A stretch of 48,720 nucleotides of DNA. It comes from an uncultured Phycisphaeraceae bacterium. Lineage in GTDB: Bacteria > Planctomycetota > Phycisphaerae > Phycisphaerales > UBA1924. Under the pieces are notes generated by a model. It worked only from the letters and a program-made list of their open reading frames with translations. It was not told where the DNA came from and ran no database searches. The stretch is taken from positions 2,125 to 50,844 of the forward strand of contig CAYNRF010000001.1 in NCBI GenBank assembly GCA_964399525.1, written 5' to 3'. The translations under genes were made by a program, and so were the position numbers. Shown here piece by piece: positions 4,963 through 33,823 of the stretch; the first letter of the stretch is position 1, and every line of letters begins with the position of its first letter.

Positions 4963-6000
<1,038 letters not shown>

Positions 6001-13243: not shown

Positions 13244-14628
13244 CGGGCGGCCTCCGCGGGCAGGGGCACGGGCTGTTCGGCGAGGCCCGGAATGACCAGT
13301 TCGGCCGGGTGCTGGCGGGGGCGGAGCAGGGTGGCGCGGTCGGCGTCGACGAGCACCTCGGCCGGCAAGACCTGATCGTTGTAGGTGCTGGCCATGGTCA
13401 TGCCGTAGGCCCCGGCGGTGAACACGGCCAGGCGGTCGCCGCGCCGGACCTCGGGCAGGTGGATGCCGCGGGCGAGGAAGTCGCCGGACTCGCAGACCGG
13501 GCCGACGACATCGCAGGGTTCGACGCCGGGAGTTGGGGGCTCGAAGCGGCGGCTCGGAGGTTCGAAGCCGGGTTCGACCGTGGTGGGCCAGATGAAGTGC
13601 TTCGCCCCGTACAGCGACGGACGGATGAGTGCGTTCATGCCGGCGTCGCAGATCACGAAGCGGCGGCCGCCCTGGCGTTTGACGTGGCGAACGGTGACCA
13701 GCAGGACACCCGCGTTGGCCATGATGGTGCGCCCAGGTTCGAGGGCGATGTGCACGCCGCGGGTGACGAGGGGGCGGAGACGCGGGATCATCGCCTCCGC
13801 GAAAGTGGTGAAGGGTGGCGTCTGGCCGGTCTCGTAGTCCGCGCCGATGCCGCCGCCGAGGTCGAGATGGGTGACGGTGGTGCCCTCGGACTCGACACGG
13901 TCGATCAACATGGCCAGGCGGTCGATGGCTTGGAGATAGGGGTCGGGCTTGTAGATGGGCGAGCCGAGGTGGACGTGGAAGCCGGCGATGGCGACATCCG
14001 GATGGCCGCGGAAGTCGGCGCAGAGAGCGATCGCCTGATCAGCGGGAACGCCAAACTTGTCGCCCGCGCGTCCGGTCGTGGTGTGGTCGTGGGCGCCGGC
14101 GTCGATGTCGGGGTTGAGCCGGATGGCGACCCGGGCCCGGACGCCGAGTTCGGCGGCCACGGCCGCGATGCGTTCGAGTTCCGAGCGGGACTCGGTGTTG
14201 AGCACGCCGACCGGGCCGCGGGCGGCGGGGTCACCGGCATCGAGTTCACCGGCCCGGCCGCGGAGCGGGCTGAACCGGCCGTCGAGGGCGGCGCGGATCT
14301 CCTCGTCCGACTTGCCCACGCCAGCGAAGACCACCTTGTCCATCGGGCAACCGGCCAGCCAGGCCCGCTCGAGTTCGATGCCGGAGACCACGTCCATGCC
14401 CATGCCCGCCCCGACCAGGCGGCGGAGGACGCCGAGGTTCGAGCAGGCCTTGACGGCGTAGCAGAGCAGCGGATCGACTTCGGCGAAGGCCGCCCGGAAT
14501 CGTGTCACATGGTCGAGCATGGTCCGCTGGGAATAGACATACAGCGGCGTGCCGAGGGCGTCGGCCAGGGTGTCGGCGGCGATACCCTCCGCGTGGAGAC
14601 GGCCCGAGATGTAATGGAAATGGTCCAT
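13240..14628 (-). CDS. lysA: Diaminopimelate decarboxylase
   Basis: 462 aa. GTPLYVYS, CYAVKACSN (PLP Lys), DVVSG.ELERA, FHVHLGS, LDLGGGIG, EPGR.IMANAG, VVGPVCESGD and YGMTMASTYN blocks are collinear with LysA. Confidence 0.93.
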   Translation of the reverse strand: MDHFHYISGRLHAEGIAADTLADALGTPLYVYSQRTMLDHVTRFRAAFAEVDPLLCYAVKACSNLGVLRRLVGAGMGMDVVSGIELERAWLAGCPMDKVVFAGVGKSDEEIRAALDGRFSPLRGRAGELDAGDPAARGPVGVLNTESRSELERIAAVAAELGVRARVAIRLNPDIDAGAHDHTTTGRAGDKFGVPADQAIALCADFRGHPDVAIAGFHVHLGSPIYKPDPYLQAIDRLAMLIDRVESEGTTVTHLDLGGGIGADYETGQTPPFTTFAEAMIPRLRPLVTRGVHIALEPGRTIMANAGVLLVTVRHVKRQGGRRFVICDAGMNALIRPSLYGAKHFIWPTTVEPGFEPPSRRFEPPTPGVEPCDVVGPVCESGDFLARGIHLPEVRRGDRLAVFTAGAYGMTMASTYNDQVLPAEVLVDADRATLLRPRQHPAELVIPGLAEQPVPLPAEAAR

Positions 14629-14644: not shown

Positions 14645-14660
14645 GATTATAGAATATTCG
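14645..14660. promoter_or_regulatory. AT-only motif GATTATAGAATATTCG; candidate bidirectional -10 core in the 51-bp lysA/GH38 divergent gap
   Basis: The plus strand reads TAGAAT (14650-14655), 24 nt before the GH38 ATG. The minus strand reads TATAAT (14651-14646), 17 nt before the lysA ATG. The 12-mer TTATAGAATATT recurs at 25923-25934 on the minus strand. Confidence 0.4.
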
Positions 14661-14679: not shown

Positions 14680-17600
14680 ATGAAGGTCGACGCCCAAATC
14701 TTCCGCCCCCGCTTCGAGACGCTGTGCCGGGAGGTGATCGGACCGGCGATCTATCCGGACGCCGAGCGGCTGGCGGTGGGGGCCTGGGGGACCGACGAGC
14801 GGTTCGCGATCGGCAAGGCCCGGGCGGCACGGTTCGAGCCGGTGGCGTTGCCGCACGCGTGGGGCCCGGCGTGGTCCACGGCCTGGTTCAAGTTGACGGG
14901 CAAGGTGCCGGAGCGGTTCGCGGGCAGGGCCGTGCACCTGCGGTTCGATCCTGGGACCGAGGCGACGGTCTGGGTCGGGAACGATCCCGTGCGGGGGTTG
15001 GATGAGAACCGCGATTCGGTGGATCTGGGCCTGGTGAATGTGGATAACTCGGCCGGAGCGTCGGTTGAGGTGCTGGTCGAGGCGGCGTGCAATCACCCGT
15101 TCGGCGATCAGGTGTTCACATGGGACAGCCGCGAGCGGGGGGAGAAGTGGCGGTCGGCCACGCCCGGGCTCGTGTCCCGGGCCGAGCTGGCGGTGTTCGA
15201 CGAGACGGTCTGGCGGCTGCACCGGCGGATGCTGTTCGCGACGCAGCTGCTGGCGGAACTGGAGCCGGAGTCGGTCCGGGCCCAGGACCTGTACGCCTGC
15301 CTGCGGCACGCGGCGGACGCGGTGGACGACGCGGACGTGGCCGGGTCGGCGGCGGGAGCGTTGCGGACCCTCAACGAGGGGCTGGGCCGGTCGGCGGGCG
15401 GGTCGACGCCGCGGCTGGTCTGCGTGGCCCATGCACACATCGACACCGCCTGGCTGTGGACGCTGGCGGAGACGCGGCGGAAGGTGGTCCGGTCGTGGAC
15501 GAACACGCTGGACCTGATGGACCGCGATCCGGCGCTGCACTTCATGTGCTCGCAGCCGCAGCAGTACAAGTGGCTGGAGTCGGACGCGCCGGCGGTGTTC
15601 GAACGGATCAGGAAGAGGGCGGCGGAGGGTCGGTGGGAGCCGGTCGGATCGATGTGGGTCGAGCCGGACGCGCTGGTGCCGTCGGGCGAATCGCTGATGC
15701 GGCAGATGCTGTACGGCGTGCGTTATTTTGAGTCGCGGTTCGGGGAGCATGGGCGACAGCGGATGGTCTATCTGCCGGACACCTTCGGCTTCCCGGCGTG
15801 CCTGCCGTCGATCATGCGGGCGTGCGGCGCGGACGTGTTCATCACGAACAAGATCTCGTGGAACCAGGCCAACACCTTCCCGCACACCTCGTTCCGCTGG
15901 CGGGGGATGGACGGGTCGGAGGTGCTGGCGCACAACACGCCGGGCGGGGACTACAACGCGACGCTGACGCCGAAGGAGTTGCGCAAGGCGACGGCCAACG
16001 TGCGGGGGCGGGATGCGGCCGGGCTGGCCGGGCCGGCGGTCGCGCTGCAGCCGTTCGGGTTCGGCGATGGCGGCGGGGGGCCGACGGCCGACATGCTCGA
16101 GCGGGCGCACGCGGCGGCGGATTGTGAGGGCCTGCCGCGGGCGGAGCTGGGGTCGGTGGCGGGGTTCCTGGACGCCCTGAAGCAGGAGGACGAGCGGGCG
16201 GGGGGTCTGCCGGCGTGGTCGGGTCCGCTGGACCTGGAGCTGCACCGCGGCGTGCTGACGACGCACGCGTGGCTCAAGCGGGCGAACCGGGCGGCGGAGC
16301 GTGAGCTGCGGGTGGCGGAGCTGCTGGCGTGCGGGAGCGCGGCCCCGGCGGCGGCCACGCAGGAGAAACTCGACGAGGCCTGGGAGCGGACGCTGCTCAA
16401 TCAGTTCCACGACATCCTGCCGGGATCGTCGATCGGGCCGGTGTACGAAGATGCGCGCCGGGACCATGCCGAGATTTCGGCGATCGCGGCGGAAGTGCAG
16501 TCGGGGGCGGTGGTCCCGGGCGGTGAAACGTTCGTGTTGAACGCGGCAACGGACGGGCGGCGCGTCGTGGTTGAGGACGGGGGCACGCTGCGGCTGGTTG
16601 AAGCCGCGGCGTTCGGATTGCATCCCATGCAAGAGGTGCGTCCGGCCCATCCCGTGCGTGTCGAAGGCGCCCGGATCACCAACGGGCTGGTGTCGTTCGA
16701 GGTCGATGAGGCCGGACGGCTCGGCCATCTCGCGCACGCGGGCGGGGTCGATCTGGCGGCGGAGCGACCGCTCAACGAGCTGCGCCTGTACCGCGACCGG
16801 CCGATGAACTGGGACGCCTGGGATATCGATCTGGACTACGAGCGGAATCTGGCGTGGACCAACGACGCACCGGCCAAGGTCGAGATCCTGCGCGCGGACG
16901 CGTTGCGGGCCGAGGTGCGGGTGACCCATCGGATGGGCTCCTCGGCGTACACGCAGGTCTTCCGGCTGGACGCCGATTCGCCGGTGGTGGAGGTGCTCAC
17001 CCAGATCGACTGGCGGGAGCGGCACCGGATGCTGCGGGTGGAGAGCACGCCGCCAGTGTCGTGCGAGCGGGTGACGGTGGGCACGCAGTTCGGGTTCGTG
17101 TCCCGGCCGACGCACCGGAACACGAGCTGGGACCGCTTCGCGTTCGAGTTTGCGTGCCATCGCTGGATGGATGCCGCGCAGCCCGGGCGGGGACTGGCGG
17201 TCCTCAGCGACGCGCTGTACGGGCGGTCGGCCCACGGAAGGACGCTCGGACTCTCGCTGCTGCGTTCGCCGACGCACCCGGATCCGCAGGCGGATCAGGG
17301 TGCGAACACGCTGCGGTATGGCTTCCTGCCGCACGCGGGCGACTGGCGGGCGGCCGATGTGGACCGGCACGCCGAGGCGTTCGGAGAGCCGGCGCGGGTG
17401 ATCCGCGCGGGTTCAGGGATCGCGCCGGTGACGGTGCGGTGCGAGCAGGGCGGACGGGTTGAGATCGCGGCATTCAAGCGGGCGGCGGACGGGCCGGGTC
17501 GCGTGCTGCGGATCGTGGAGACCCGCGGGATGCACACGGGCGTCGATGTGGCATTCGCGTCGGCGTCGCGGCTTCGGCGGGTGGATGGGCTGGAGCGGGC

Positions 17601-17685
17601 GATCGCGGGTGAGGGGTGGCGGGATGGGGCGTCGGTGCGGGTGGAAGTGCGGCCGTTTGAGATTGTGACGTTGTTGGCGGAGTGA
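14680..17685 (+). CDS. GH38 alpha-mannosidase
   Basis: 1001 aa. AHAHIDTAWLW catalytic-region motif, PDTFGF, and a long C-terminal GH38 beta-domain. GGAG lies 6 nt upstream of the ATG. Confidence 0.92.
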   Translation: MKVDAQIFRPRFETLCREVIGPAIYPDAERLAVGAWGTDERFAIGKARAARFEPVALPHAWGPAWSTAWFKLTGKVPERFAGRAVHLRFDPGTEATVWVGNDPVRGLDENRDSVDLGLVNVDNSAGASVEVLVEAACNHPFGDQVFTWDSRERGEKWRSATPGLVSRAELAVFDETVWRLHRRMLFATQLLAELEPESVRAQDLYACLRHAADAVDDADVAGSAAGALRTLNEGLGRSAGGSTPRLVCVAHAHIDTAWLWTLAETRRKVVRSWTNTLDLMDRDPALHFMCSQPQQYKWLESDAPAVFERIRKRAAEGRWEPVGSMWVEPDALVPSGESLMRQMLYGVRYFESRFGEHGRQRMVYLPDTFGFPACLPSIMRACGADVFITNKISWNQANTFPHTSFRWRGMDGSEVLAHNTPGGDYNATLTPKELRKATANVRGRDAAGLAGPAVALQPFGFGDGGGGPTADMLERAHAAADCEGLPRAELGSVAGFLDALKQEDERAGGLPAWSGPLDLELHRGVLTTHAWLKRANRAAERELRVAELLACGSAAPAAATQEKLDEAWERTLLNQFHDILPGSSIGPVYEDARRDHAEISAIAAEVQSGAVVPGGETFVLNAATDGRRVVVEDGGTLRLVEAAAFGLHPMQEVRPAHPVRVEGARITNGLVSFEVDEAGRLGHLAHAGGVDLAAERPLNELRLYRDRPMNWDAWDIDLDYERNLAWTNDAPAKVEILRADALRAEVRVTHRMGSSAYTQVFRLDADSPVVEVLTQIDWRERHRMLRVESTPPVSCERVTVGTQFGFVSRPTHRNTSWDRFAFEFACHRWMDAAQPGRGLAVLSDALYGRSAHGRTLGLSLLRSPTHPDPQADQGANTLRYGFLPHAGDWRAADVDRHAEAFGEPARVIRAGSGIAPVTVRCEQGGRVEIAAFKRAADGPGRVLRIVETRGMHTGVDVAFASASRLRRVDGLERAIAGEGWRDGASVRVEVRPFEIVTLLAE

Positions 17686-17691: not shown

Positions 17692-17728
17692 CGGCCCTGC
17701 GGGCCGACGGGGGGCTGAAAGCCCCCCG
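17692..17728. terminator. Two tandem GC hairpins between convergent genes (no U-tract)
   Basis: CGGCCC-TGC-GGGCCG (17692-17706) and CGGGGGGCT-GAA-AGCCCCCCG (17708-17728), between the GH38 stop (17685) and the oxidoreductase stop (17737). Confidence 0.4.
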
Positions 17729-17736
17729 CTCCGAGG

Positions 17737-19404
17737 TCAGTTGTCCCATGGCCATTGGGTGGGCATGGATTGGTCCTCGGCCGCGGCGCGGAGGGCAGCG
17801 GTCGCGTCTGCGTCGTCGCAGATCGCGTGCGGCTCCGTCGCGTTGGTGACGCAGCGGGCCGCGGTCAGTCCGGCGGCTTCGCCGATGGCCCACTCGACCG
17901 GGTGCAGGCGGGTGCAGCCGTTGGCCACGTGGGAGACGCCCAGGGCCTTGCCGGCGCTGAGCAGGTTGCGGACACGCACGGGGACCAGCGCGCCCAGCGG
18001 GATCTGGAACGGGCACGCGGGCACATAGACGTTGTTGCGGCCCGCGGCGGACGGGTGCAGGTCGATCGGGTAATGACCGATGCCGATCGAATCCGTGAAG
18101 GACGCGCCGGCGCCGTAGCGGGTGACGTCCTGGTTCGGTCGGCCGTCGCGTTTGCGTTGCTCGGTGCCGACATGGACCTCGGTGAGCATGGTGCGGGCGC
18201 GGAGGCGGCGCGGTTCGCGGATGTAGGCGGCCATGGCGAAGCCGTCGGGCGTGCCGAGTTCGTCGCCGCGGAGTTTGAGCCCGGGATACCCGGTTCCGCC
18301 GTCATGGCGGGGCGCGTCGGTCTGCATCCAGTAGACGAGGCAGCGGGACTGTTCGCGGGCGGCTTCGCAGGCCTGGGCGCGGTCGGCTTTGGTCACGCCC
18401 AGCAGCGGGTGCAGCCAGTGGTCCATTTGGACCCAGTTGACGAGGCAGACGTCGGGGAACTGGGCCGCCTGGGCTTCGGTGTAGGCCGCGTGATCGACGA
18501 TGCGTCGATACCGCCAGAGTTCCCACTGGCCCTGCTCGGGCTCGTCGGGCCAGGGGACCATCGGCAGGTGGCGGCCCTCACGCCCGGTGTGGGTGGGCAC
18601 GGTCCAGCTGAACAAGGGGCCGGTCCACGGCGGGGCCATCTCCGGCACGAAGGAGCGCCAGAAGTCGTAGTCGGACGGCCGGGCAATGGTGTGGTTCTCG
18701 CCCGGGCGGTGTTCGAGCGCGAAGCACCAGGAGAAAGCCTGCTGGTCGCGTTCGTCGCATTCGACCCCCGCGCGGAGGTCGGTGCGGGCGTGGTGCTCGC
18801 CGAAGACGTGCTGGCCCTCGGCGCCGATGAGCGATTCGATACCGCCGAGGTCGAGGACGTCGCCGAGGTCGGTCGCATCGAGGACGAAGTCGGCCTCCAC
18901 GGTCAGTTCCTCGCCGCCGGGACGGACGAAGGTGACGGCGGTGATGCGGTCGGCGTGGGTGTGGACCCGGTGCAGATCCCAGCCGGTGCGCAGATCGATC
19001 AGGCCGCGGACGTGCGGCTCGGAGAGCATGTCGCGGAGGACGCGTTCGATGACGCGGGGCTCGGCGCAGAGGCGACTGACCCAGCCGCGGCCGGGGTTCA
19101 TGCGCGGATGGTCGCGGACCTCGGGAATCAGCGGGCGGCTGGCGCGGTACCAGGCGCGGACCTGCTCGCGCATGGCGGCGTAGGACCCGGTGCAGCCGCG
19201 GAAGCCGGCGGGGGCGCCCGGTCCGTCGCCTTCGACCCAGGGGTTTTCGTCGGGCGGGACTGCCTGGGCGGTGAGCTGGCCGCCGATCCAGGCGGTGGGT
19301 TCGACGACGACGCAACGGACGCCGTTGCGGGCGCAGGCAAGGGCGGCGGGGACACCGCCGCAGGTGGCGCCGACGATCAGGACCGGGGTGCGGATGGTGT
19401 CCAA
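17737..19404 (-). CDS. FAD-dependent oxidoreductase (FAD_oxidored/PF12831-like)
   Basis: 555 aa. N-terminal dinucleotide-binding motif is VLIVGATCGGVPAALACARNG. It is the last gene of the CUT1 ABC operon, 7 nt after the permease stop. Confidence 0.85.
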   Translation of the reverse strand: MDTIRTPVLIVGATCGGVPAALACARNGVRCVVVEPTAWIGGQLTAQAVPPDENPWVEGDGPGAPAGFRGCTGSYAAMREQVRAWYRASRPLIPEVRDHPRMNPGRGWVSRLCAEPRVIERVLRDMLSEPHVRGLIDLRTGWDLHRVHTHADRITAVTFVRPGGEELTVEADFVLDATDLGDVLDLGGIESLIGAEGQHVFGEHHARTDLRAGVECDERDQQAFSWCFALEHRPGENHTIARPSDYDFWRSFVPEMAPPWTGPLFSWTVPTHTGREGRHLPMVPWPDEPEQGQWELWRYRRIVDHAAYTEAQAAQFPDVCLVNWVQMDHWLHPLLGVTKADRAQACEAAREQSRCLVYWMQTDAPRHDGGTGYPGLKLRGDELGTPDGFAMAAYIREPRRLRARTMLTEVHVGTEQRKRDGRPNQDVTRYGAGASFTDSIGIGHYPIDLHPSAAGRNNVYVPACPFQIPLGALVPVRVRNLLSAGKALGVSHVANGCTRLHPVEWAIGEAAGLTAARCVTNATEPHAICDDADATAALRAAAEDQSMPTQWPWDN

Positions 19405-19411
19405 GGGGGAA

Positions 19412-20233
19412 TCAGCCTTTCACCGCGCCGCCGAAGAGTTCGGGCTTGAGCCAGCGCTGGACCGCGAGGAAGAAGACGATGATGGGCACGATGGCCAGAA
19501 CGGACGCGGCGTAGGCCACGCGGGGATTCGTGGCGAAGACGCCGAGCATGCGGTTGATGGCCACGGGCAGCGTGAACTTGTCCTCGCTCTGCAGGATGAT
19601 CAGCGGCCAGAGCAGGTCCGACCACGCGCCGATGACGCTGAACAGCGCGAGCAGGGCCAGCGACGGCATCGCCAGCGGCAGCATGACCGACCACCAGATC
19701 CGCAGCGAGCCCGCCCCGTCGATCCAGGCGGCTTCCTCGAGATCGCGGGGGATGGCCAGGAAGGCCTGGCGGCAGAGAAAGATGCCGAAGGCCGACACCG
19801 AGAACGGGATCACCGCCCCGGCCAGCGAGTCGTAGAGACCAAGCCCGGCGGCGATCTTGAACATCGGGACCACGATCACCTGCTCGGGGATCATGGTGGT
19901 GGCCAGCACCAGGACAAAGACGATGTCGCGGCCGCGGAAGCTGAGCCGGGCGAGGGGGTACGCGGCCAGGGCGGCCAGAAGCACGTTGAACCCGGCGCGG
20001 GCGAGTGTGACAAGCACCGAGTTGAAGGCGGCCAGGCCCAGCCCGCCCTCGCGGATGGCCTCTTCGAAGTTCTGCGTCGTCCACGGGCCGCTGAGGGTGT
20101 TGAGTTCGGCCTCGGTCGACTGGAAGGCGCCCACGACCAGCCAGATGGCCGGGCCGATCGCGAGCGTGACGAACAGGATCGCGGCGATCCAGGCGGTCAG
20201 GGTCCAGCCGGGGGCGCGTGCGGAAGTGTTCAC
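19412..20233 (-). CDS. Carbohydrate ABC transporter permease (MalG/CUT1 type)
   Basis: 273 aa from GTG 20233 (VNTSARAPGWTLTAW...). EAA loop is LEEAAWIDGAGSLRIWWSVMLPLAMP. The GTG overlaps the TGA of the upstream permease (GTGA). Tracked ORF 19412-21379 is an overrun. Confidence 0.88.
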   Translation of the reverse strand: MNTSARAPGWTLTAWIAAILFVTLAIGPAIWLVVGAFQSTEAELNTLSGPWTTQNFEEAIREGGLGLAAFNSVLVTLARAGFNVLLAALAAYPLARLSFRGRDIVFVLVLATTMIPEQVIVVPMFKIAAGLGLYDSLAGAVIPFSVSAFGIFLCRQAFLAIPRDLEEAAWIDGAGSLRIWWSVMLPLAMPSLALLALFSVIGAWSDLLWPLIILQSEDKFTLPVAINRMLGVFATNPRVAYAASVLAIVPIIVFFLAVQRWLKPELFGGAVKG

Positions 20234-21114
20234 GCGGCCTCCTTCCGGCCCGCGGAGAGGCGCAGGTTGATCAGACTGAAGACGAGGATGATGACGAAGA
20301 GCACCACGCCGGCGGCGCAGGCCGCGCCGAAGGCGCCCTGCTCGAAGGCGAGGTCGTAGATGTAGGGCACGGCGGTCTGCTGATCGACGGGCACCCCGCG
20401 GACGGTGACGAACAGCTCGTCGAAGACCTTCAGGGCCGAAATGGAGGAGATGACCGCGATCAGGGCGATGGTGGGGCGGAGGCTGGGCAGGGTGACGTGC
20501 ACGAAGGTGCCCCAGGGGCCCGCGCCGTCGATGGCGGCGGCCTCCTTGGTGGAGGAGGGAACCTGCATCAGACCCGCCAGGAAAATCATCATGTAGAAAC
20601 CGAAGCCCTTCCACGCCGTCACCATCATGGCGCTGATCAGCGTGAAGGGGTGCTCGGTGAGCCAGCGCACGCCGGTGGCGCCCGTCCATCCGAAGAGGGC
20701 AATGAGGGCCTGGTTCAGAAGTCCGTTGTCCTCGCTGAGCATCAGCCGCCAGGCGATGGCCGCGACGATCGTCGGGGTGACGACGGGAAGGAACAGGAGC
20801 ACCCGCAGCGGTTTTCCGGCCCGGATGCCCGAGTCGATCACCAGCGCCGCCGCGAGCGAGAGCACGATCAGCGCCGGGGTGACCAGCAGGTAAATGAATG
20901 AGTTGGCGATCGCCCTCCAGAACACGCGGTCCGAGAGCAGCGCGGCGTAGTTGTCGAACCCGACGAACTCGGGCGCGGAGAAGGCCGAGTAGCGGGTGAA
21001 CGAGTAGGAGACGACCTGCACGGCCGAGCCGAGGAAGAACACGCCGAGCACCAGCAGGGCCGGCGCGAGGAACAGCCACGGGGTCAGCGGCCGGTGGGCC
21101 CGCAGGGCGCTCAT
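20230..21114 (-). CDS. Carbohydrate ABC transporter permease (MalF/UgpA, CUT1 type)
   Basis: 294 aa. EAA loop is TKEAAAIDGAGPWGTFVHVTLPSLRP. The start overlaps the SBP stop (21111-21114). Confidence 0.9.
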   Translation of the reverse strand: MSALRAHRPLTPWLFLAPALLVLGVFFLGSAVQVVSYSFTRYSAFSAPEFVGFDNYAALLSDRVFWRAIANSFIYLLVTPALIVLSLAAALVIDSGIRAGKPLRVLLFLPVVTPTIVAAIAWRLMLSEDNGLLNQALIALFGWTGATGVRWLTEHPFTLISAMMVTAWKGFGFYMMIFLAGLMQVPSSTKEAAAIDGAGPWGTFVHVTLPSLRPTIALIAVISSISALKVFDELFVTVRGVPVDQQTAVPYIYDLAFEQGAFGAACAAGVVLFVIILVFSLINLRLSAGRKEAA

Positions 21115-22508
21115 CGGTCAAGCTCCACGGCAACCGGCTCGGGGCGTGGCACGGCGTCGATCGACATGGGCGGGGACCCGGCCCGCGCGCGGGCGAGGTC
21201 GGACTCATCCAGGATCCTGTTCCAGTCGCGCTCGATGTCCTCCAGCACCCGCTCGACGGGGATCTCCGAGAGCAGGGCACGCTTGATGTGCTCGTTGAAC
21301 GAGCGGCGGAGCGTCGGCCAGCACTCGAGGGCGGGGGTGAACGCCACGCCGTCCGCCAGCGCGGTGGCGACGATCGCACGGGCGATGCCGACCTTCTCGA
21401 TGCCCGAGGCGGCCTCTTCCGGGGTCGGCCCGGCGAAGAACGGGTCGGCCAGCGAGGCGGGCGTGCTGGGGAGGATCGGCGCGAGCCGGCAGAAGGCCAG
21501 CTGGTTCTCCGGGCTGGTCAGAAACCACGCCAGCCGCGCGGCCAGGTCCGGGTGACGGGTCCGGGCGCTGACACAGACAGGCATCACGGCGATATGGGCC
21601 CGCCCGAGCGACCCGACGATCGGCTCGGAGACCTCCGTCCGGGCGTAGACCCGGGGCGAGGCGTCCTTGACCCGCCCAAGAAAGTTTGCTCCCGTGTTGA
21701 GCACGCCCACGCGCTCGTCCTGGTACACCTCGATGAGGTGCTCGAACCCGTTCGTCGCGGCCTGGCGCGGCATCGCCCCCGAGCGGTACAGGTCCACCCA
21801 CGCCCGTGTCCACGACACGATGTCCGGGGAGGTCAGACTGGCCCGCAATCGGCCGTCCGCGCTGGTGACGAACGGCACCAGGCCGTCGGCGAGCATCATC
21901 ACGGGCAGCTGCGAGTCCTGCCCGAGCGGCTGGGTGAACAGCGTGGCGCCCGTCCGCTCGAACAGGTCGGCGGCCTGGGCTCGCAGCGTCGGCCAGTCCG
22001 CGGCGACGGTGTCCGGGTCGACGCCCAGTTCCTCGAGCAGCCCCTCGTTGACGATCCGGGACTGGGTGGTCAGGTACCAGGGCAGGGCGTACAGCCCGTC
22101 CGAGAGCCGCCCGACCGAGAGAGCGCCGGCGTGGTAACGGGCCTCCGGGGAGCCCTCGAGCACCCCGCCGAGTTCAAGGAACGCGCCGGCGCCGGCGAAC
22201 CGGGCGAACATCAGGTCCGACAGGTTGATCACATCGGGGGCGCGGTCCGCCGCGGCGGCGGCGATGAACTTGCGCTCCACCGCGCTGAAGGGCACGTCGA
22301 CCCAGAGCACGCGCACGCCCGGGTGCTCCGACTCGAAGGCGTCGATCAGACCTTCCATATACGTGTTGAAGGTCGGGCGGAGCGACAGCGTCCACAGCTC
22401 CAGCGTGATGTCATCCTCGGCACGGTCCGCGCACGATCCCGCCGAGAAAAGCGAGAGGATCAGCATCACGCCGGTCAGGGCGCGGCAGAGCGGGGTCTTC
22501 ATGAGCAC
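21111..22508 (-). CDS. Extracellular solute-binding lipoprotein, family 1 (CUT1 sugar ABC)
   Basis: 465 aa. Lipobox is LSLFSAGSC. ITLELWT...MEGLIDAFESEHPGVRV..VDVPF is the typical SBP_bac_1 N-terminus. Confidence 0.9.
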   Translation of the reverse strand: MLMKTPLCRALTGVMLILSLFSAGSCADRAEDDITLELWTLSLRPTFNTYMEGLIDAFESEHPGVRVLWVDVPFSAVERKFIAAAAADRAPDVINLSDLMFARFAGAGAFLELGGVLEGSPEARYHAGALSVGRLSDGLYALPWYLTTQSRIVNEGLLEELGVDPDTVAADWPTLRAQAADLFERTGATLFTQPLGQDSQLPVMMLADGLVPFVTSADGRLRASLTSPDIVSWTRAWVDLYRSGAMPRQAATNGFEHLIEVYQDERVGVLNTGANFLGRVKDASPRVYARTEVSEPIVGSLGRAHIAVMPVCVSARTRHPDLAARLAWFLTSPENQLAFCRLAPILPSTPASLADPFFAGPTPEEAASGIEKVGIARAIVATALADGVAFTPALECWPTLRRSFNEHIKRALLSEIPVERVLEDIERDWNRILDESDLARARAGSPPMSIDAVPRPEPVAVELDR

Positions 22509-22541
22509 AGCATCCCCGGAGAGCGGGCGGAACGCAACCGA

Positions 22542-23528
22542 TCAGCCCCCGTTGTTCGGCTCTTCCTCGTCCAGGCGCCGGTCTGCATTCGACCAGATGG
22601 CCTTGAAGGTGCTCAGGCCGGTGTTCTGGTTGAACAGCTCCTGCGCATCGATGGACTCGACGTGATTGTCGACGAACACGAAGTTGGCCCGCCCCTTGAG
22701 GCCGAAGGGCTGATCGCTCCTCCGCGGGTGGCGGTAATAGGGCAGGTAGGACTGCGGGGTGGGCCGGGCGCCGCTGCCGCGGTCGTACGAGCCCGCCTCG
22801 GGGGCGCGGAGATCGCGGGTGCCGAACGCGTTGCCGGGGAAGTCGTTGACGCCCTGACCGCCGCCGAAGCGCTCGCCCGGACGGCCCTGGGCGCCGACGG
22901 CCGAGTTGGTGAACCAACGCCATTCGCCGTTGATCTGGACGCCCGAGACGCCCCAGGCCTCGGTCAGCAGGAAGGTCTTGCCCGGCTCGTTGGCCGTGGT
23001 GTCCGTGAAGCCGACCCCGCCCGTGCCGGTGCTGAAGTTGGCCGTGTTGATGCGGTTGTAGCGGTGGGTGCGGTAGTCGCTGGCCGTGCTCCCGGGGGCG
23101 AGTGAGATGCCGGCGGAGGCGTAGTAGTTCATGGTGTAGGAACGTTCGCCGTCCGGATGGTTCGGGCAGACGAACACGCCGCCGCCCGCTGTCTGCGAGA
23201 TGGGGCTGTTGACGTCGTCGGCCTCGTTGCCGCCGAAGTCGGGCAGGTAGCTGCCGATGCGGGGGCGTTCGAACCAGTACACGCCCGGGTTGCCGTTCTC
23301 GTCCAGGCCCTCGTTGATGTTCGGCGGGAACTTGCCCTTCCAGTCGTTGGCGTACAGGATAAGCGCCTGTCCCAGCGAGCGGACGTTGGTCTGGCAGATC
23401 ACGTCCCGGGCGGTGTCGCGGGCGCGGCCGATGGCCGGCAGCAGGATGCCGATCAGCAGCGCGATGATCGCGATGACCACCAGCAGTTCGATGAGGGTGA
23501 ATGCGTGTCTTGTGCGGCTGCGGATCAT
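22542..23528 (-). CDS. DUF1559 family protein with prepilin-type N-terminal motif
   Basis: 328 aa. N-terminus [38 protein letters not shown]-terminal [15 protein letters not shown] block. The start overlaps the regulator stop (ATGA at 23525-23528). Confidence 0.9.
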
Positions 23529-24682
23529 GCTTTGACTCCTGCGGCGCGACGGGTGGTGACACGGCTTCCCTCTTCCGTGGCACGAGACGTCGATTCGCGG
23601 ATGATAAGTTCGGCGTCGAGCGTGCGACGCGACGGCGGATTCCCGGTTTTGACCTGGGACAGAAGTTCACGGATGGCGGCCTTGCCGACCTCCACGAGCG
23701 GCTGGCGCATGGTGGTCAGCGCGGGCGAGAGATGGACCGCGCTGGGTGGGTCGTCGACGCCCACGAGCGAGACATCGCCGGGGATGCTCAGGCCGGCCCG
23801 GCTGGCGGCGGTGTACATGTTCAGCGCGAAGTAGTACCCCGCGGCGAACACGGCGGTGGGCGCGTCGGGCGCGGACAGCAGCGCGGCCGCCTGGGTCAGC
23901 CCGGTCTCGTCGAGCTGCCAGCCCGGGGAGGACAGCTCCGGGCACGCGTCCGCGTCGAGCCCGAGACGCCGGCAGGCCCGGCGGTAGCCCGCCAGGCGGT
24001 CGATGTTGTTGGTCAGGTCGGTCTGTCCGCCGACGAAGGCGATGCGCCTGTGCCCGAGGTCGAAGAGGTGGCGCACCGCCGACTCGGCCAGCGCCACGTT
24101 GTCGGTATCGACGCACCCGATGGTCGGCACATCGGTCCGCGCGCCGACCACCATGGTCGGCTGCCGTCCCATGTCGTTGAGCGTCGGGCGCCGGCCGAAC
24201 CTGGGCGAGTGATCCAGCTGGGTCTTGTAGGGGTTGACGTAGAGGTATCCCTGGCACTCGTTGCGCCAGTCTTCCCCGTAGCGGAGCAGCACGATATCGG
24301 CGCCGATCTCCTCGGCCCCGCGGCGCACGCCCTCCATGATCTGTCCGTGGTACGAGTCGGCCAGCGACGCCTCGGTGTGGAACACGATCCCCACCCGCAT
24401 GGTCGAAGTCCGGTGCGAGGGCTCGGCGTAGGACTCGTGCACGAACGTGCCGCGCCCCTGCCCGCGACGCAGTACGCCGGCGGCGACCAGTTCCTGCAGG
24501 GCCCGGTGCACGGTGACGAGCGATACTTCGAGCGTGTCGGACAGAGCCTTGGTGCTGGGGATGCGCTCGCCGGGCCCGAAGACCCCGCGGTCGACCGCGT
24601 CGCGCACGGCATCCCGGACGAGTTCGTAGAGCGGGCGTCCTGGCTCTCCCCGAACGGGTTGCAACTCGGGTCTGGTCGTCAT
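23525..24682 (-). CDS. AraR-type transcriptional regulator (GntR winged-helix N-terminus plus LacI/PBP1 sugar-binding domain)
   Basis: 385 aa. The HTH is [65 protein letters not shown]. The C-terminal part has the periplasmic-binding-protein-like I fold pattern ([19 protein letters not shown]). Confidence 0.88.
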
Positions 24683-24687: not shown

Positions 24688-24715
24688 CCGGATCGGGCCG
24701 TCGGGCCCGATCCGG
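24688..24715 (-). terminator. Perfect 12-bp GC hairpin after the PEP-CTERM gene, abutting the regulator start
   Basis: On the minus strand: CCGGATCGGGCC-cgac-GGCCCGATCCGG, then AGTT, then ATG (24682). There is no U-tract. The 3' arm contributes the only GGAG near the start codon. Confidence 0.45.
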
Positions 24716-24731: not shown

Positions 24732-25793
24732 TCAGCGGCGACGGCGGGCGGCCATCAGACCGGCCAGGCCCAGCAGGCCGGCGGCGCCGGGGGCGGGGAC
24801 CTGGAAGATGTGGACGTTGCGGTTGGCGAAGTCGAGCACGGCCAGGGTGCCGGAGGCGGCATCCCAGGAGAAGTCGTACCAGCCGTTGCCGTCGGCGAGC
24901 GTCCCGCCGCCGATCAGGTCGAGCGACAGCGAGAGGCTGTTGCCGTTCAGATCCGTGACCTTCAGGACGTTGGCGGCGGACTGACCGAGGCCGTTGCCGG
25001 TGCGATCGTTCCAGATCACGAAGTCACCGAAGGCGGAGTTGTCGACGTAGGCGACGTTCTGGCCGGCGATGAAGGCGCCGTTCTCGTTGTTCTCAACGAG
25101 CAGCGTCGCGACGCCGGAGTTCGCGCCGGTGCGGGTCAGCAGGGTGACGTCGTTGGACCGACGGGCCACCATGTTGCCGTTGGCGGCGAAGTCCATGTCA
25201 CGCCAGAACGAGCCCTGGAAGTCGGGGGTGATGATCATGCCGTTCTCGGGGGCCGAGTTGCCGAACACGTCGGCGCCGGTCTCGGTGTCCTGCAGGAAGC
25301 GGCGTCCCTGGCCGAAGGTGGTCCACGCCACGCCGGTGCCCTGGCCCTGGAAGCCCGAGTCGAACCCGACGCCGGAGCCGCCGCGGATGTTCTTGGCCCA
25401 CAGCACGCCGTTGGTGGTGGTGTCGAACACCTGCAGACCCTGGGCGTCGGCCGCGCCATCGTCGTAGGCGGCGGCGAGGCGGTTGCCGGAGATGTCCAGG
25501 CCGGAGAAGCCGCGGGCGCCGGGGGTGCCGGAGATGAACTGCATCAGCTCGAAGCTGCCGTTGGAGTAGCGGGCCACGCCCGTGCCGGTCGCGGCGGCGC
25601 CGTTGAACCCGGCGGCGAAGAGGTCGGTGCCGTTCCAGGCGATGGCCGACACGTTGGTGCCGATGAACGTCGAGCTCTGGTCGTTGTTCAGCGCGAACAG
25701 GTCGATCCGCTGGATCTCCCGCATGCTGATCTGGGCCGAGGCCGTCCCGGCGATCCCGGCGAGCAACAGAATGCCGATCATGGTGTTCTTCAT
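24732..25793 (-). CDS. Secreted protein with PEP-CTERM sorting signal; paralogue of the CDS at 37325-38680
   Basis: 353 aa from ATG 25793 (MKNTMIGILLLAGIAGTASAQ), with GGAGAG upstream. The C-terminus VPAPGAAGLLGLAGLMAARRRR gives the PEP-like motif, a TM helix and a basic tail. Tracked ORF 24732-26045 overruns the start. Confidence 0.85.
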   Translation of the reverse strand: MKNTMIGILLLAGIAGTASAQISMREIQRIDLFALNNDQSSTFIGTNVSAIAWNGTDLFAAGFNGAAATGTGVARYSNGSFELMQFISGTPGARGFSGLDISGNRLAAAYDDGAADAQGLQVFDTTTNGVLWAKNIRGGSGVGFDSGFQGQGTGVAWTTFGQGRRFLQDTETGADVFGNSAPENGMIITPDFQGSFWRDMDFAANGNMVARRSNDVTLLTRTGANSGVATLLVENNENGAFIAGQNVAYVDNSAFGDFVIWNDRTGNGLGQSAANVLKVTDLNGNSLSLSLDLIGGGTLADGNGWYDFSWDAASGTLAVLDFANRNVHIFQVPAPGAAGLLGLAGLMAARRRR

Positions 25794-25920
25794 CTCATCT
25801 CTCCAAATCGATGTGCGAGACCATCCCTCACAATGGGTGCAGAGCATCCGGGCCTCGTCGGCTGCTCTCCGATCCTCATCTACGAAAACCGCGCGAGCGG
25901 GGTCGCGGGCCAAGAGGACC

Positions 25921-25940
25921 ACTAATATTCTATAACAATC
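25921..25940 (-). promoter_or_regulatory. AT-only motif (minus strand GTTATAGAATATTAG), candidate promoter -10 for the PEP-CTERM gene
   Basis: It shares the 12-mer TTATAGAATATT with 14647-14658. On the minus strand the arrangement is TTGTGC-N18-TAGAAT. It lies about 130 nt upstream of ATG 25793. Confidence 0.4.
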
Positions 25941-26063
25941 CGGGATGGTTGCACAAGAGCCTTCCCGACTTCGTGAGGGAAAATCTCGGCCGAGGCGAGT
26001 GAAAGTACTTTCTTTGTCCCGGCAGGCACGACCCGGGGGCTTCACGGACCTCCGGGCGTCACC

Positions 26064-26990
26064 TTATCGGATTTCGGGCACCGCCACCCAGGCGCCGTCC
26101 TGGGCGATCGAGCGGTTGCCCGCCTCCATCACGGCGACGTTTTCCACAATGTCGCGCAGCGGCGCCGGGGGCTCTCCACCTTCGAAGAACCGGACCATGC
26201 CGGCCACGAGGCGGGTGTAGACGGGGGCGAAGTCGACCACGAACTGCTGGACCCCCTTCTCCCCGTGCACGGTCGCGCCGAAGGCCCAGGACGCCCTGCG
26301 ATCCATCCGGATCCGGACGTACCGGCCGTCCCGGTACTCCATGTCCAGCAGGTGGCGGTCCGGCATGGCGACGGCCGACACCCGCGCCACGCCCGCCCCT
26401 TGCCCGGAACGGCGGAAGATCGCGTCCACCATCTCGATCGAATGACACCCGTAGTGCCAGAGGTGCGGCATCATGTCCAGCAGTTCCCCGTTGCCGAACG
26501 CGTCGATCGCCACGATCGGTCCCAGCGCGGCGAAGTCGAGCTTCTCGATCTCCTCGACGAAACGCAGCGACGACGCGCTGTACGCCCGGGCATTGGCCGA
26601 GCGGGCCTTCTCCAGCAGCACCCGGGCCTGGTCCAGCGAGCAGGTCATCGGCTTGTCGATGTAGGTCGGCATGCCGCGATCGAGTGATGGGCTGGCCAGT
26701 TCGAGGTGCCGGTGACCGTTGATGTTCAGAACCATGACGCCATTGACCTTCGAGAGCAGCTCATCGATCGAGCCGACCTGCTGCGCCCCCAGTTCGATCG
26801 CGCGGGACTTCCAGGACTCGACATCCTTGCGGCTCTGCTCCGGGCCGTCGGGGTGCTGCCACTCGTGCTTGCCGGGGTCGAAGAAGTGCGTGACACGACA
26901 GGCGGTCCTGCCCGCGTCGTGCAACTCCTTGATGCGGCGGGTGAACTCGGGCAGGTGGGACGAGTCGATGCCGATGGCGCCGATGTTCAT
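26064..26990 (-). CDS. Gfo/Idh/MocA-family oxidoreductase (divergent N-terminal Rossmann motif)
   Basis: 308 aa. MNIGAIGIDSSHLPEF... and YIDKPMTCSL correspond to the family EKP-like motif. AGGAGA lies 8 nt upstream of the ATG. Confidence 0.8.
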   Translation of the reverse strand: MNIGAIGIDSSHLPEFTRRIKELHDAGRTACRVTHFFDPGKHEWQHPDGPEQSRKDVESWKSRAIELGAQQVGSIDELLSKVNGVMVLNINGHRHLELASPSLDRGMPTYIDKPMTCSLDQARVLLEKARSANARAYSASSLRFVEEIEKLDFAALGPIVAIDAFGNGELLDMMPHLWHYGCHSIEMVDAIFRRSGQGAGVARVSAVAMPDRHLLDMEYRDGRYVRIRMDRRASWAFGATVHGEKGVQQFVVDFAPVYTRLVAGMVRFFEGGEPPAPLRDIVENVAVMEAGNRSIAQDGAWVAVPEIR

Positions 26991-27112
26991 GACGGACGGT
27001 CTCCTGAGGGGGGCGATGCAGGGGTGTGGGGCCGGGGAACCGAAAGGTACTGGGGGATCTTGGAGATGATGGGGCGGCCGGCGAGGTTGGCAGTGGTGGG
27101 GTGGACGGGAGC

Positions 27113-27139
27113 GGGGGGCGGGGGGCGGGGGCGGGGGGG
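27113..27139 (+). repeat. G-quadruplex-type G-tract array (G6-C-G6-C-G5-C-G7) on the template strand of an operon spacer
   Basis: Read directly from the sequence: GGGGGGCGGGGGGCGGGGGCGGGGGGG. It lies inside the 163-nt spacer 26991-27153, which is strongly C-rich and G-poor on the transcribed (minus) sense. Confidence 0.7.
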
Positions 27140-27153
27140 AGTGACCGGGACGG

Positions 27154-28182
27154 CTACCACTTCGGTGTGACCGGGGATCCGGAGGCGGCGCTCTGACGCT
27201 CGGCCTCGATGAGCCGGGTCACCGCCAGGGCATCGTCGAGGGTGGGCAGGCCGTCGCGGGGACCGCCCGCGGCCGCGGCCACCACGGCGCGGGCCTGCAT
27301 GTCGTACCCGGACTCGGCCGGCAGCGGTGCAGGGGTCGCCTCGCCCCCCGCGTGCAAGGTCATCGCGGGGCTGCGTGAGGAGTCGAACGCGACGACGCCC
27401 CGTTCGAACTCGACCGTGAACGCCATGCGGAAGGGAAAGGACCGGTCGTTGAGCCAGCCGCCCTCGGTCTGGACGGCCGGGCCGCCCGCGTAGCACATCT
27501 GCGTGGCGATGTGGTGGTCGTCACCGATCGACCGGACGGAGTCGGGCCGGCCGAACAGCGACAGGGCGAAATCGGCGTCGTGCACGTGCAGATCGAAGAT
27601 CGCGCCGCCGCTGCGGGCCGGGTCCGCGTAGAAGTCGCCGGCCCAGGCCGGGGGGGCTCCCAGGCGTTCGAAACGGGCGTGCACGACGCGGCCGTAACGT
27701 TCGTCGGCGATCATCGACCGCAGGTCCGACCAGCCGGGCCAATGGCGCACGCACATCGCCGGGACGCAGAGAAGGTCGGTCCGCGCCGCCCGCTCGGCGA
27801 GCATGCGGATCGGCGGGAGGGTGACGGCGACGGGCTTCTCGACCAGCACGTGCTTGCCCGCGTCGAGCGCCCGCAGCGCCAGATCCACGTGGGAATCCGT
27901 GTGGGTGCAGATGCTCACCAGATGGATGGATCGGTCGGCGAGCAGTGCTTCCGGCTCGGCGTACCCGGCGACCTCGGCCGGGTCGAACAGGCGGTCTTCG
28001 GCGGCGCCGGGCCCGATGTTGCCCGCCCCGGTCGCCCGGCCCGTCCGTCGGTCCGGGTCCCGGTCGCAGACGGCGCGGAGCACGCAGGGCGAACCCGAGG
28101 CCGCGGCCGCCAAATAGGCCCGGGTGTGGGTCTGGCCCATGAAACCCATGCCGATCACGCCGATGCCGATGGTGCCGCTCAT
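27154..28182 (-). CDS. Gfo/Idh/MocA-family oxidoreductase
   Basis: 342 aa from ATG 28182 (MSGTIGIGVIGMGFMGQTHTRAY...HVLVEKPVA). The ATG overlaps the upstream TGA (ATGA at 28179-28182). Tracked ORF 27154-28887 overruns. Confidence 0.88.
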   Translation of the reverse strand: MSGTIGIGVIGMGFMGQTHTRAYLAAAASGSPCVLRAVCDRDPDRRTGRATGAGNIGPGAAEDRLFDPAEVAGYAEPEALLADRSIHLVSICTHTDSHVDLALRALDAGKHVLVEKPVAVTLPPIRMLAERAARTDLLCVPAMCVRHWPGWSDLRSMIADERYGRVVHARFERLGAPPAWAGDFYADPARSGGAIFDLHVHDADFALSLFGRPDSVRSIGDDHHIATQMCYAGGPAVQTEGGWLNDRSFPFRMAFTVEFERGVVAFDSSRSPAMTLHAGGEATPAPLPAESGYDMQARAVVAAAAGGPRDGLPTLDDALAVTRLIEAERQSAASGSPVTPKW

Positions 28183-31054: not shown

Positions 31055-31176
31055 GGGTCTCTCCCTCGGAGACGGTGTCAGAACCCGGCGGGCGCGATGC
31101 CTTGGGTAAAATCCCCGCGTCCAACTTCTTGGTCACGGGGCTTCTTCGGATCGGGGAGGGATTGCACCGATCCTCG

Positions 31177-31196
31177 AAAGATTATATAACCTTACT
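31177..31196 (-). promoter_or_regulatory. AT-only motif (minus strand GGTTATATAATCTTTCG), candidate internal promoter -10 for nagB
   Basis: It contains TATAAT. It overlaps the stop codon (TAA, 31182-31184) of the upstream Gfo gene. It matches 37250-37265 at 14 of 16 positions. It lies about 125 nt upstream of ATG 31054. Confidence 0.35.
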
Positions 31197-32189: not shown

Positions 32190-32272
32190 GTCTTACACCA
32201 TCCGGGCGATGCCCGGTGTCAGAACTCCTCCGCGGAAGGCCGATGCCCCCGCCGTGCTTGAAGGGTAGACGC

Positions 32273-33769: not shown

Positions 33770-33823
33770 GCCATCCGCCCGATGAGGACCGAACGCAACA
33801 CCGAACCGACCCGAGAGGCCCCG

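Follow-up and report, generated by a model that had tools for sequence, protein, structure and literature searches.

Organization of the cassette

We analysed a 48,720-nucleotide stretch of DNA (hereafter the window) from contig CAYNRF010000001.1 of an uncultured, marine Phycisphaeraceae bacterium, in which a minus-strand operon encodes a CUT1-type sugar importer together with a type-IV-pilin-like protein. The operon itself is ordinary, but the dedicated pilin-like family that it carries is not. The window has a G+C content of approximately 70% and its best relatives are metagenome-assembled genomes of the Phycisphaerales. Related loci fetched for comparison, amounting to approximately 2 Mb altogether, are designated here by L-numbers (L001, L002 and so on).

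A preliminary description of the window had delineated six open reading frames, all on the minus strand, between positions 17737 and 24682. Their coordinates and strand were borne out, and the domain content attributed to their products holds in Pfam and NCBIfam profile searches. The six genes stand, but the unit most likely comprises seven, as judged from sequence, and starts with a gene for a secreted protein that lies behind a conserved cis-regulatory region. In the presumed order of transcription, the genes and the two structural features associated with them are the following:

24732-25793, minus strand: first gene, encoding a secreted protein of 353 residues that carries a signal peptide and ends in a PEP-CTERM-like tail (VPAPGAAGLLGLAGLMAARRRR); homologues lie upstream of the regulator in related loci
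24688-24715, minus strand: perfect 12-bp hairpin with a 4-nt loop, in the gap between the first gene and the regulator gene (fold z = -3.0)
23525-24682, minus strand: regulator (PF00392, 58 bits; PF13377, 125 bits)
22542-23528, minus strand: type-IV-pilin-like (prepilin-type) protein of 328 residues (PF07963, 29.8 bits)
21111-22508, minus strand: CUT1 solute-binding protein, a probable lipoprotein (..LFSAGSC; SBP_bac_8, SBP_bac_1)
20230-21114, minus strand: ATP-binding cassette (ABC) permease 1, UgpA/MalF-like (BPD_transp_1; UgpA-like, 97 bits)
19412-20233, minus strand: ABC permease 2, UgpE/MalG-like (BPD_transp_1, 74 bits; UgpE-like, 112 bits)
17737-19404, minus strand: cytoplasmic oxidoreductase dependent on flavin adenine dinucleotide (FAD), the last gene of the unit (PF12831, 289 bits)
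17692-17729, minus strand: two adjacent G+C-rich hairpins after the flavoprotein stop codon, common to the convergent GH38 gene (-33.9 kcal/mol, z = -2.4)

The junctions between the six downstream genes are as previously reported, with an ATGA overlap at 23525-23528 between the regulator and pilin-like genes, a 33-nt gap before the binding-protein gene, overlaps of ATGA (21111-21114) and GTGA (20230-20233) at the start of each permease gene and a 7-nt gap before the flavoprotein gene. The overlap of the regulator stop codon with the pilin-like start codon (ATGA) recurs in L001-L003, L005 and L006. The binding-protein gene has a GTG start at 22508, with an ATG at 22502 as an equally good alternative, and the flavoprotein gene has a TTG start at 19404. 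The preliminary description had also raised the question of an internal promoter or terminator between the pilin-like gene and those of the transporter; scans revealed neither a terminator-like nor a sigma-70-like site there, and the 33-nt gap folds no better than shuffled sequence (z = +1.3). This absence of structure or terminator supports the continuity of the operon. The two hairpins at 17692-17729 are, from their sequence, the probable end of the transcript; they lack a T-run and hence were not called by a strict terminator scan. A search of Rfam gave no match to known RNA families. Together, these features support the view that the genes behave as one conserved, co-oriented unit.

The pilin-like protein and its head family

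The protein encoded between the regulator and the binding protein begins with a class III signal (MIRSRTRHA, followed after the predicted cleavage point by FTLIELLVV), with Ala at position -1, Phe at +1 and Glu at +5. Its matches to PF07963 (cut-off 21.2 bits) and TIGR02532 (25.9 bits; cut-off 16.3) both pass. The AlphaFold2 model of the protein (pLDDT 86, pTM 0.83) contains an N-terminal helix of 51 residues (12-62), which Foldseek aligns to the gonococcal pilin 1AY2, followed by an eight-strand, beta-rich head. By its signal peptide and modelled fold, the protein can be assigned to the type IV pilin-like superfamily. Only the N-terminal pilin helix has relatives in sequence and Foldseek searches of the PDB, and the head has none. 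A solute-binding fold, as implied by the Pfam name SBP_bac_10, was considered and rejected: Foldseek returned no significant match to a binding protein, and the model presents a helix and a beta-rich head instead.

The protein had been labelled as a member of DUF1559, and the match to PF07596 does pass its cut-off. The margin is small, however (27.6 versus 23.3 bits), the aligned part is confined to the first half of the profile (positions 2-153 of 268), and the precomputed PF07596 matches of its homologues are weak, faint or absent. The H-X9-DG model TIGR04294 was not among the NCBIfam matches at E ≤ 0.01, and in the terminal strand (FVFVDNHV) Leu stands ten positions ahead of Asp, where H-X9-DG calls for His. 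The head has invariant motifs of its own, including SYIPYYRHP and FxDGHV, as well as two near-invariant cysteines and many invariant aromatic residues. A search with the head alone against 1.84 billion cluster representatives retrieved 217 clusters at E ≤ 1e-3, with 38 at E ≤ 1e-30. On sequence criteria, the protein is best described as a marginal member of DUF1559 that falls outside the H-X9-DG group and whose head defines a distinct small family, referred to below as the head family. At position -1, 131 members of this family have Ala and 90 have Gly. In the terminal strand (residues 283-290), DNHV is found in the orthologue group of the window and DGHV in most of the family (13 versus 176 sequences).

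Linkage of the head family to CUT1 importers

The preliminary description had suggested a comparison of synteny, and gene order and strand were found to recur in L001, L002, L003/L004, L005, L006, L008, L012 and many metagenome contigs. The order regulator, pilin-like protein, binding protein, permease, permease and flavoprotein is kept in L001, L002 and L003/L004, with pilin-like proteins 67-83% identical to that of the window, and is identical in L005 and L006, where this identity falls to 48-49%; the cassette is also present in L012, L104, L113, L118, L123, L150 and L151. In L008, a complete genome (CP054186.1), the intact cassette sits amid unrelated housekeeping genes. In L009, a 5.76-Mb Phycisphaeraceae chromosome, the set is reshuffled yet still together, in the order of two Gfo/Idh/MocA genes, flavoprotein, binding protein, permeases, regulator, a hypothetical gene, a PEP-CTERM protein, the pilin-like gene and GHL10. 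In L006, moreover, the stop codon of the pilin-like gene overlaps the start codon of the binding-protein gene. The new context in L008, the reshuffling in L009 and the overlap in L006 point to function rather than to mere regional synteny.

The association was quantified against a control set. A genome scan with a full-length alignment caught the universal N-terminal motif and returned 80 generic prepilin-like loci of the Planctomycetes-Verrucomicrobia-Chlamydiae (PVC) group; only the two true head-family members among these 80 scanned loci (L011 and L012) sit in a regulator-importer cassette. A scan of metagenome contigs with a head-only alignment provided the test set of 78 loci. For the linkage counts, loci were clustered at 90% identity and retained when they had 1.8 kb or more of upstream and 5.5 kb or more of downstream sequence. 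CUT1 permeases lie downstream on the same strand in 26 of 31 head-family loci and in none of 40 generic PVC prepilin-like loci, and a directly adjacent regulator of the periplasmic-binding-protein (PBP) type is present in 23 of 31 and 1 of 40, respectively. The linkage of the head family to CUT1 importers and their regulators is near-exclusive, and the coupling of pilin-like gene and importer that had been proposed from the window is therefore far more strongly founded on these counts than on the window itself.

This linkage is maintained under at least four architectures, counted in 36 informative loci before clustering. The commonest is pilin-like protein, regulator, binding protein and permeases (10 loci), followed by the arrangement of the window, with first gene, regulator, pilin-like protein, binding protein, permeases and flavoprotein (5-6 loci), by a distant regulator with pilin-like protein, binding protein and permeases (5 loci), and by regulator, pilin-like protein, an extra gene, binding protein and permeases (4 loci). 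L007 pairs the pilin-like gene and importer with a LacI-type rather than GntR-type regulator and an unrelated binding protein, and L121 keeps only the pilin-like gene and the regulator.

The cassettes were compared component by component. Within the same, flavoprotein-containing cassette type in other organisms, identity to the proteins of the window is 43% for the head, 55% for the regulator, 48% for the binding protein and 59-60% for the permeases. In other cassette types the corresponding values are 42%, 32%, 30% and 39%, as means of five loci of which L139 resembles the same type (47-60%) and the other four lie at 25-35%. Identity of the head to the protein of the window is thus 40-45% whatever the cassette type. 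Divergence of the head fails to follow that of the substrate-specific parts, which indicates that its conserved core most likely has a role that all these importers share. That the head recognises one particular sugar appears unlikely from this comparison; candidates for the shared function are contact with a feature common to the permeases or binding proteins, or with a common assembly or outer-membrane partner.

The first gene and its upstream region

The first gene lies on the same strand as the regulator gene and 49 nt upstream of it. A homologue takes this place in nearly all cassettes of this type; it is found directly upstream of the regulator in L001-L003, L006, L008, L012, L104, L113, L118, L123, L150 and L151, and the pattern of the tail VPAPGAAGLLGLAGLMAARRRR is invariant across six of the homologous proteins, which carry the NCBI label 'hypothetical protein'. 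Neither Pfam nor NCBIfam, PF07589 and TIGR02595 included, gave a match to the protein of the window, while the homologue of L009 has a weak match to PF07589 and reads VPEP. In a profile search of the PDB the best hit was the BambL lectin, at a non-significant E of 0.45.

The hairpin at 24688-24715 separates this gene from the regulator gene. None of 200 shuffled sequences folds as well, the 3' arm overlaps the GGAG ribosome-binding site of the regulator gene, and the structure is kept at the same gap in six loci, with three of its pairs changed on both sides. It could be an attenuator or a partial terminator that raises the amount of the first-gene product relative to the regulator.

Two conserved elements were identified within a 270-nt region upstream of the first gene, one of which has a second copy elsewhere in the window:

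26001-26012, minus strand: perfect 12-bp palindrome GAAAGTACTTTC, a candidate operator and the sole exact match in the window
25927-25935, minus strand: AT-rich element TTATAGAAT(AT), a candidate -10 region and/or operator, conserved upstream of the first gene
14647-14655, plus strand: second copy of TTATAGAAT(AT), a candidate co-regulated promoter between lysA (13240-14628, minus strand) and the GH38 gene (14680-17685, plus strand)

In the window, TTATAGAAT lies 77 nt downstream of GAAAGTACTTTC, and a GAAAnnACTTTC palindrome precedes TTATAGAAT by 77-79 nt in the window, L002 (7513), L006 (7701) and L091 (6416). The palindrome GAAAGTACTTTC has three matches in the window at up to two mismatches, against 0.23 expected, and the 15-mer of the AT-rich element has two, against 0.00 expected. 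TTATAGAAT occupies the equivalent place in L001-L004 and L006. Elsewhere it heads whichever gene starts the unit, be it the regulator gene (L005, L123, L150 and L151) or NAGPA (L008); in L113 it stands directly upstream of the pilin-like gene, and so heads the transporter operon there. Altogether, TTATAGAAT has 21 sites in the fetched loci, 20 of them within loci of this cassette type. A strict sigma-70 consensus scan did not call it a promoter. A generic lineage promoter, as the sole reading of the element, was rejected, since it is absent from LacI-type sister cassettes and from unrelated genes in the fetched loci. Its distribution makes TTATAGAAT a candidate regulon-specific promoter and/or operator. 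The second copy is kept at the orthologous site in L001-L005, which suggests that the cytoplasmic GH38 alpha-mannosidase and/or the lysA-HGSNAT pair may be co-regulated with the uptake cassette.

Other features of these regions were also recorded. Two weaker copies of the palindrome were noted, one at 37161-37172 and the other at 6102-6113, where a GH13 gene and a second prepilin-like gene diverge. The presumed 5' leader of the first gene contains a short G+C-rich hairpin (25892-25907, minus strand), which lies approximately 20 nt downstream of TTATAGAAT and is followed by TTTTCGT; at the corresponding place in the leaders of L001-L003, approximately 40 nt downstream of TTATAGAAT, there is a hairpin GGCACCGG..CCGGTGCC.

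Regulator, transporter and likely substrate

The regulator matches PF00392 at residues 18-81 and PF13377 at residues 203-365, with PF13377 and PF00532 together covering 175-365. These matches identify the AraR architecture recognized in the preliminary description, a GntR-type winged helix-turn-helix joined to a LacI-type sugar-binding domain. This combination of DNA-binding domain and sensor is that of Bacillus subtilis AraR; the likeness is one of architecture, and nothing indicates arabinose as the effector.

The importer was likewise correctly typed as CUT1, with an SBP_bac_1/8 binding protein and two MalF/MalG-type permeases, and correctly said to have no ABC ATPase inside the cassette. 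No MalK/MsiK-type ATPase is encoded in the cassette, a Walker A search of the six-frame translation of the window gave no MalK-type match, and the only annotated ABC ATPase in the window (822-2405) is of the two-domain CUT2 type. Supply of the ATPase in trans is common in CUT1 systems, and the MalK-like gene of L007 lies away from its cassette. ChiE/MsBP-type CUT1 importers are alike in having an SBP_bac_1/8 protein, two MalF/MalG-type permeases and an ATPase encoded elsewhere, and the best PDB match of the binding protein is 6WPM, the MsBP of Synechococcus (E = 2e-55). MsBP belongs to a ChiE-type cluster, and the assignment of ChiE to chitobiose is itself putative (PMC8938411). In the binding protein of the window Asp198 and Phe276 are kept, while the anion-binding residues R125 and R228 of MsBP correspond to Q149 and E256. 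An MsBP-type phosphosugar ligand was rejected on the replacement of both implicated arginines by Gln149 and Glu256, and a phosphosugar ligand appears unlikely for this protein.

Several genes of the neighbourhood are related to amino sugars. They encode a NagB-like/PIG-L fusion (1020 bits to NF002557) and two HGSNAT/NagX-like proteins, and further neighbours comprise NAGPA, two GHL10 proteins, the cytoplasmic GH38 enzyme, three Gfo/Idh/MocA proteins and one xylose-isomerase-like TIM-barrel protein. The neighbours of the related cassettes include GH20 in L005, and MurQ-like and AnmK proteins in L006. This neighbourhood suggests amino sugars and mannosides, and the substrate is probably an amino-sugar-containing oligosaccharide, as far as gene content can tell. 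The lysA gene (13240-14628) was considered as a member of the pathway and set aside, as it encodes a bona fide diaminopimelate decarboxylase and is probably a housekeeping neighbour.

Upstream of the cassette, a minus-strand block at 26064-32189 contains the three Gfo/Idh/MocA genes, the AP_endonuc_2 gene (at approximately 28179-29015) and the NagB-like/PIG-L fusion, and is syntenic in L001-L006. Its divergent partner (32216-36256, plus strand) encodes GHL10 and a NAGPA-GHL10-dockerin protein. From its annotations, the region 26064-36256 looks like an uncharacterised pathway for the degradation of amino-sugar glycans.

The flavoprotein

The last gene of the unit encodes a protein that matches PF12831 over its full length (residues 8-528, 289 bits, E = 1e-85), with a Rossmann motif (VLIVGATCGG) at residues 8-17 and no signal peptide. 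An AlphaFold2 model (pLDDT 93) confirmed the fold of the FAD domain. A fold search returned approximately 2,000 generic FAD-fold matches at template-modelling (TM) scores of at most 0.31 and no specific family, and the best match in a sequence search of solved structures had an E of 0.011. In the sister cassettes L141, L149, L153 and L163, a GH1 glycosidase follows the second permease, in the slot that the flavoprotein occupies in the window. The presence of a conserved flavoprotein in the usual slot of a glycosidase provides a lead to the function of PF12831. In L009 the flavoprotein gene directly follows two Gfo/Idh/MocA genes.

Given these neighbours, oxidation of the imported sugar by the flavoprotein is plausible. 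Keto-intermediate cleavage of glycosides, including the deglycosylation of C-glycosides, combines an FAD- or NAD-dependent 3-dehydrogenase with a xylose-isomerase-like lyase and Gfo/Idh/MocA enzymes. Oxidative cleavage of this kind was reportedly described by Nasseri et al. in Nature in 2024. The window resembles such pathways in clustering the flavoprotein with an AP_endonuc_2 TIM-barrel protein and three Gfo/Idh/MocA proteins, and a C-glucosyl oxidoreductase is found among the fold matches of the flavoprotein, although this match is as generic as the others (TM 0.26-0.29). To our knowledge, the flavin enzymes of keto-intermediate pathways are of the GMC type and not PF12831, and we regard the analogy as a lead only. 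In L010 (9083-11635), a paralogue of the flavoprotein (54% identity) is divergently paired with an AP_endonuc_2 gene in an otherwise unrelated neighbourhood, a pairing that suggests that the two types of enzyme work together.

Proposed role of the cassette and alternative explanations

The reading that we favour, with somewhat better than even confidence, is that of a sugar-inducible cassette of seven genes, in which the pilin-like protein serves the CUT1 importer as a dedicated accessory in the periplasm, independently of the substrate, and is anchored by its helix or incorporated into a short pseudopilus. Transcription would start at the bipartite region formed by GAAAGTACTTTC and, 77 nt later, TTATAGAAT, would run through the first gene, the regulator, the pilin-like protein, the binding protein, the two permeases and the flavoprotein, and would end at the hairpins common to the convergent GH38 gene. 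The LacI-type domain of the regulator would sense the imported sugar or a product of it. The N-terminal helix of the pilin-like protein would hold it in the inner membrane; alternatively, type IV filament machinery from another locus would polymerise it into a short pseudopilus. In the periplasm it might act as a scaffold that keeps the binding protein close to the permease, or connect the capture of substrate at the outer membrane with the permease. The ATPase would come in trans from a shared MalK/MsiK-type protein. In the cytoplasm, the flavoprotein would carry out the first step on the imported compound; this step may be an oxidation, the product of which could pass to the Gfo/Idh/MocA and xylose-isomerase-like enzymes whose genes lie 2-8 kb upstream. 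A bolder version, to which we give a low probability, posits an 'uptake pseudopilus' in the Phycisphaerae, a filament made of or tipped by such pilin-like proteins that would span the periplasm, unusually wide in planctomycetes, or the outer membrane and hand oligosaccharides to CUT1 importers.

Several observations weigh against the favoured reading. Co-transcription and a role in transport are inferred from gene order alone, and a separate transcript from upstream could end at the 24688-24715 hairpin. The transporter is missing from five of the 31 informative loci. In L128 (8221-10825) and L156 (8240-10807), a first-gene homologue and the pilin-like gene form an isolated pair followed by AddAB-like helicase-nuclease genes, which hints at a partner other than the importer; the proteins encoded by these two genes may interact directly. 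All cassettes come from one class and perhaps descend from one ancestral cassette, so that part of the linkage may be inheritance. At position -1 of the signal, Ala takes the place of the canonical Gly in 59% of family members, and no genes for type IV filament assembly or prepilin peptidase were found in the annotated parts of the window. The head has no binding-site homology detectable by Foldseek against solved structures, and the chemistry proposed for the flavoprotein derives from its neighbourhood only.

Some of these observations would be expected if the protein were a regulated pseudopilin of a type II secretion system or type IV filament that exports or displays the linked exoproteins, co-regulated with the importer and with no part in import. 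The best N-terminal family matches are to GspG, GspH and ComGC, secreted neighbours are conserved (the first-gene protein in many loci, and a protein containing a carbohydrate-binding module between the pilin-like and binding proteins in L132), and L128 and L156 retain precisely the first-gene homologue and the pilin-like gene, with no transporter. The first gene is nevertheless absent from the commonest architecture (10 of 36 loci), while the transporter is nearly always there, the head is conserved across cassettes with differing secreted partners, and pseudopilins are normally encoded beside their machinery, of which none is found nearby. We consider this explanation rather unlikely, and we assign a slightly lower likelihood to a surface fibre subunit or adhesin for polysaccharide particles, co-regulated with sugar use and mechanistically separate from the importer. 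Pili-like fibres of planctomycetes bind dextran (PMC5394234), modular pilins carrying lectin modules are widespread (PMC8179133), and the head is rich in invariant aromatic residues, but a lectin-type head should track the substrate, whereas the identity of this head is equal across unrelated binding proteins. So intimate a placement of its gene, flanked by those for the regulator and the binding protein and with stop and start codons that overlap, would also be unusual for an independent adhesin.

The linkage could, finally, be the legacy of a duplicated ancestral cassette in this lineage, with a pilin-like gene functionally unrelated to its neighbours. All examples come from the Phycisphaerae and their relatives and the cassettes are paralogous, as such an origin would entail. 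The linkage has, however, outlasted the divergence of the binding proteins to approximately 25% identity, a swap of the DNA-binding domain of the regulator (GntR versus LacI), at least four gene orders and moves to different genomic contexts, while no comparable linkage is seen for generic prepilin-like genes in the same phyla. We therefore hold this explanation to be very improbable.

Relation to known systems

The closest functional analogue of the proposed accessory, although not a homologue, would be the archaeal bindosome. In Sulfolobus solfataricus, sugar-binding proteins with class III signals and the small pilin-like proteins BasABC are needed for ABC-dependent sugar uptake, and the genes of the latter are accompanied by those for a dedicated ATPase and platform, BasEF (PMC3047682). 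The likeness lies in the use, here proposed, of type-IV-pilin-type proteins as accessories of sugar ABC importers. Bindosome sugar-binding proteins themselves carry class III signals, whereas the N-terminus of the binding protein of the window (MKTPLCRALTGVMLILSLFSAGSC) is a signal of the Sec/lipoprotein type that ends in Cys; no BasEF-type assembly genes were found in the window or in the 20-kb loci inspected; and the bindosome is archaeal, while the present cassette belongs to a diderm bacterium and encodes a separate 328-residue pilin-like protein with a large novel head.

Among bacterial proteins, GspG, GspH and ComGC share with the pilin-like protein the class III signal, Glu at +5 and a long N-terminal helix with a beta-sheet head, but the protein scores 35.6 bits against a GspG cut-off of 88.9, its head is more than twice as large and it is encoded in a sugar importer operon rather than beside secretion or competence machinery. 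A type IV filament with a function in import has a precedent in the competence pseudopilus. Modular pilins such as PilB and PilC of Streptococcus sanguinis are similar in joining a pilin module to an extra functional module (PMC8179133), but here the extra part has no recognisable domain or solved relative, and the genomic partner is a transporter rather than a pilus locus. The PVC prepilin-like families (DUF1559/PF07596, H-X9-DG) are alike in N-terminal motif, size, terminal FxDGHV strand and phyla; the generic members differ in their lack of importer linkage (0 of 40), and the protein of the cassette has head motifs of its own, which mark out a small family within the very large PVC prepilin-like assemblage.

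Genomes of planctomycetes and related bacteria each contain tens to hundreds of genes for prepilin-like 'DUF1559' proteins, and we know of none with an established function. In Planctopirus limnophila, 68 DUF1559 paralogues make up the largest paralogue group, two of them essential (PMC10632474). An annotation-level label of DUF1559 is 'solute binding protein family' (PMC2754498), and our literature searches found no function for DUF1559 beyond this label and no bacterial link between pilin-like proteins and ABC importers; searches on H-X9-DG, PF12831, FAD_oxidored and the combination of prepilin, Planctomycetes and solute-binding returned nothing relevant. A 2025 review of the phylum makes no mention of pilins, DUF1559, type II secretion or ABC transporters (PMC12673574), and dextran-binding fibres of planctomycetes have been described without a molecular identity (PMC5394234). 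How glycans move across the planctomycete envelope is a standing question, for which a small, importer-linked subfamily offers a concrete and genetically testable entry point. Were the favoured reading true, bacteria would use type IV filament proteins not only for motility, adhesion, secretion and the uptake of DNA but also for nutrient import, in parallel to the archaeal bindosome. An uptake pseudopilus, were it to exist, would in addition provide a first function for one branch of the DUF1559-like expansion and a molecular identity for glycan-binding fibres on planctomycete cells.

A second prepilin-like gene in the window (4963-6000, minus strand) lies upstream of an importer of the CUT2 (ribose/xylose) type, the genes of which encode a permease (3615-4787), a Peripla_BP_4 binding protein (2553-3569) and the two-domain ATPase (822-2405), all on the minus strand. 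Its product shares with the pilin-like protein of the cassette only the first 64 residues (73% identity) and an FxDGHVE strand, the rest of the head being different, with N_methyl as the only domain detected, and can be assigned by sequence to a different head family. The pairing of pilin-like proteins with importers may hence reach beyond the head family studied here.

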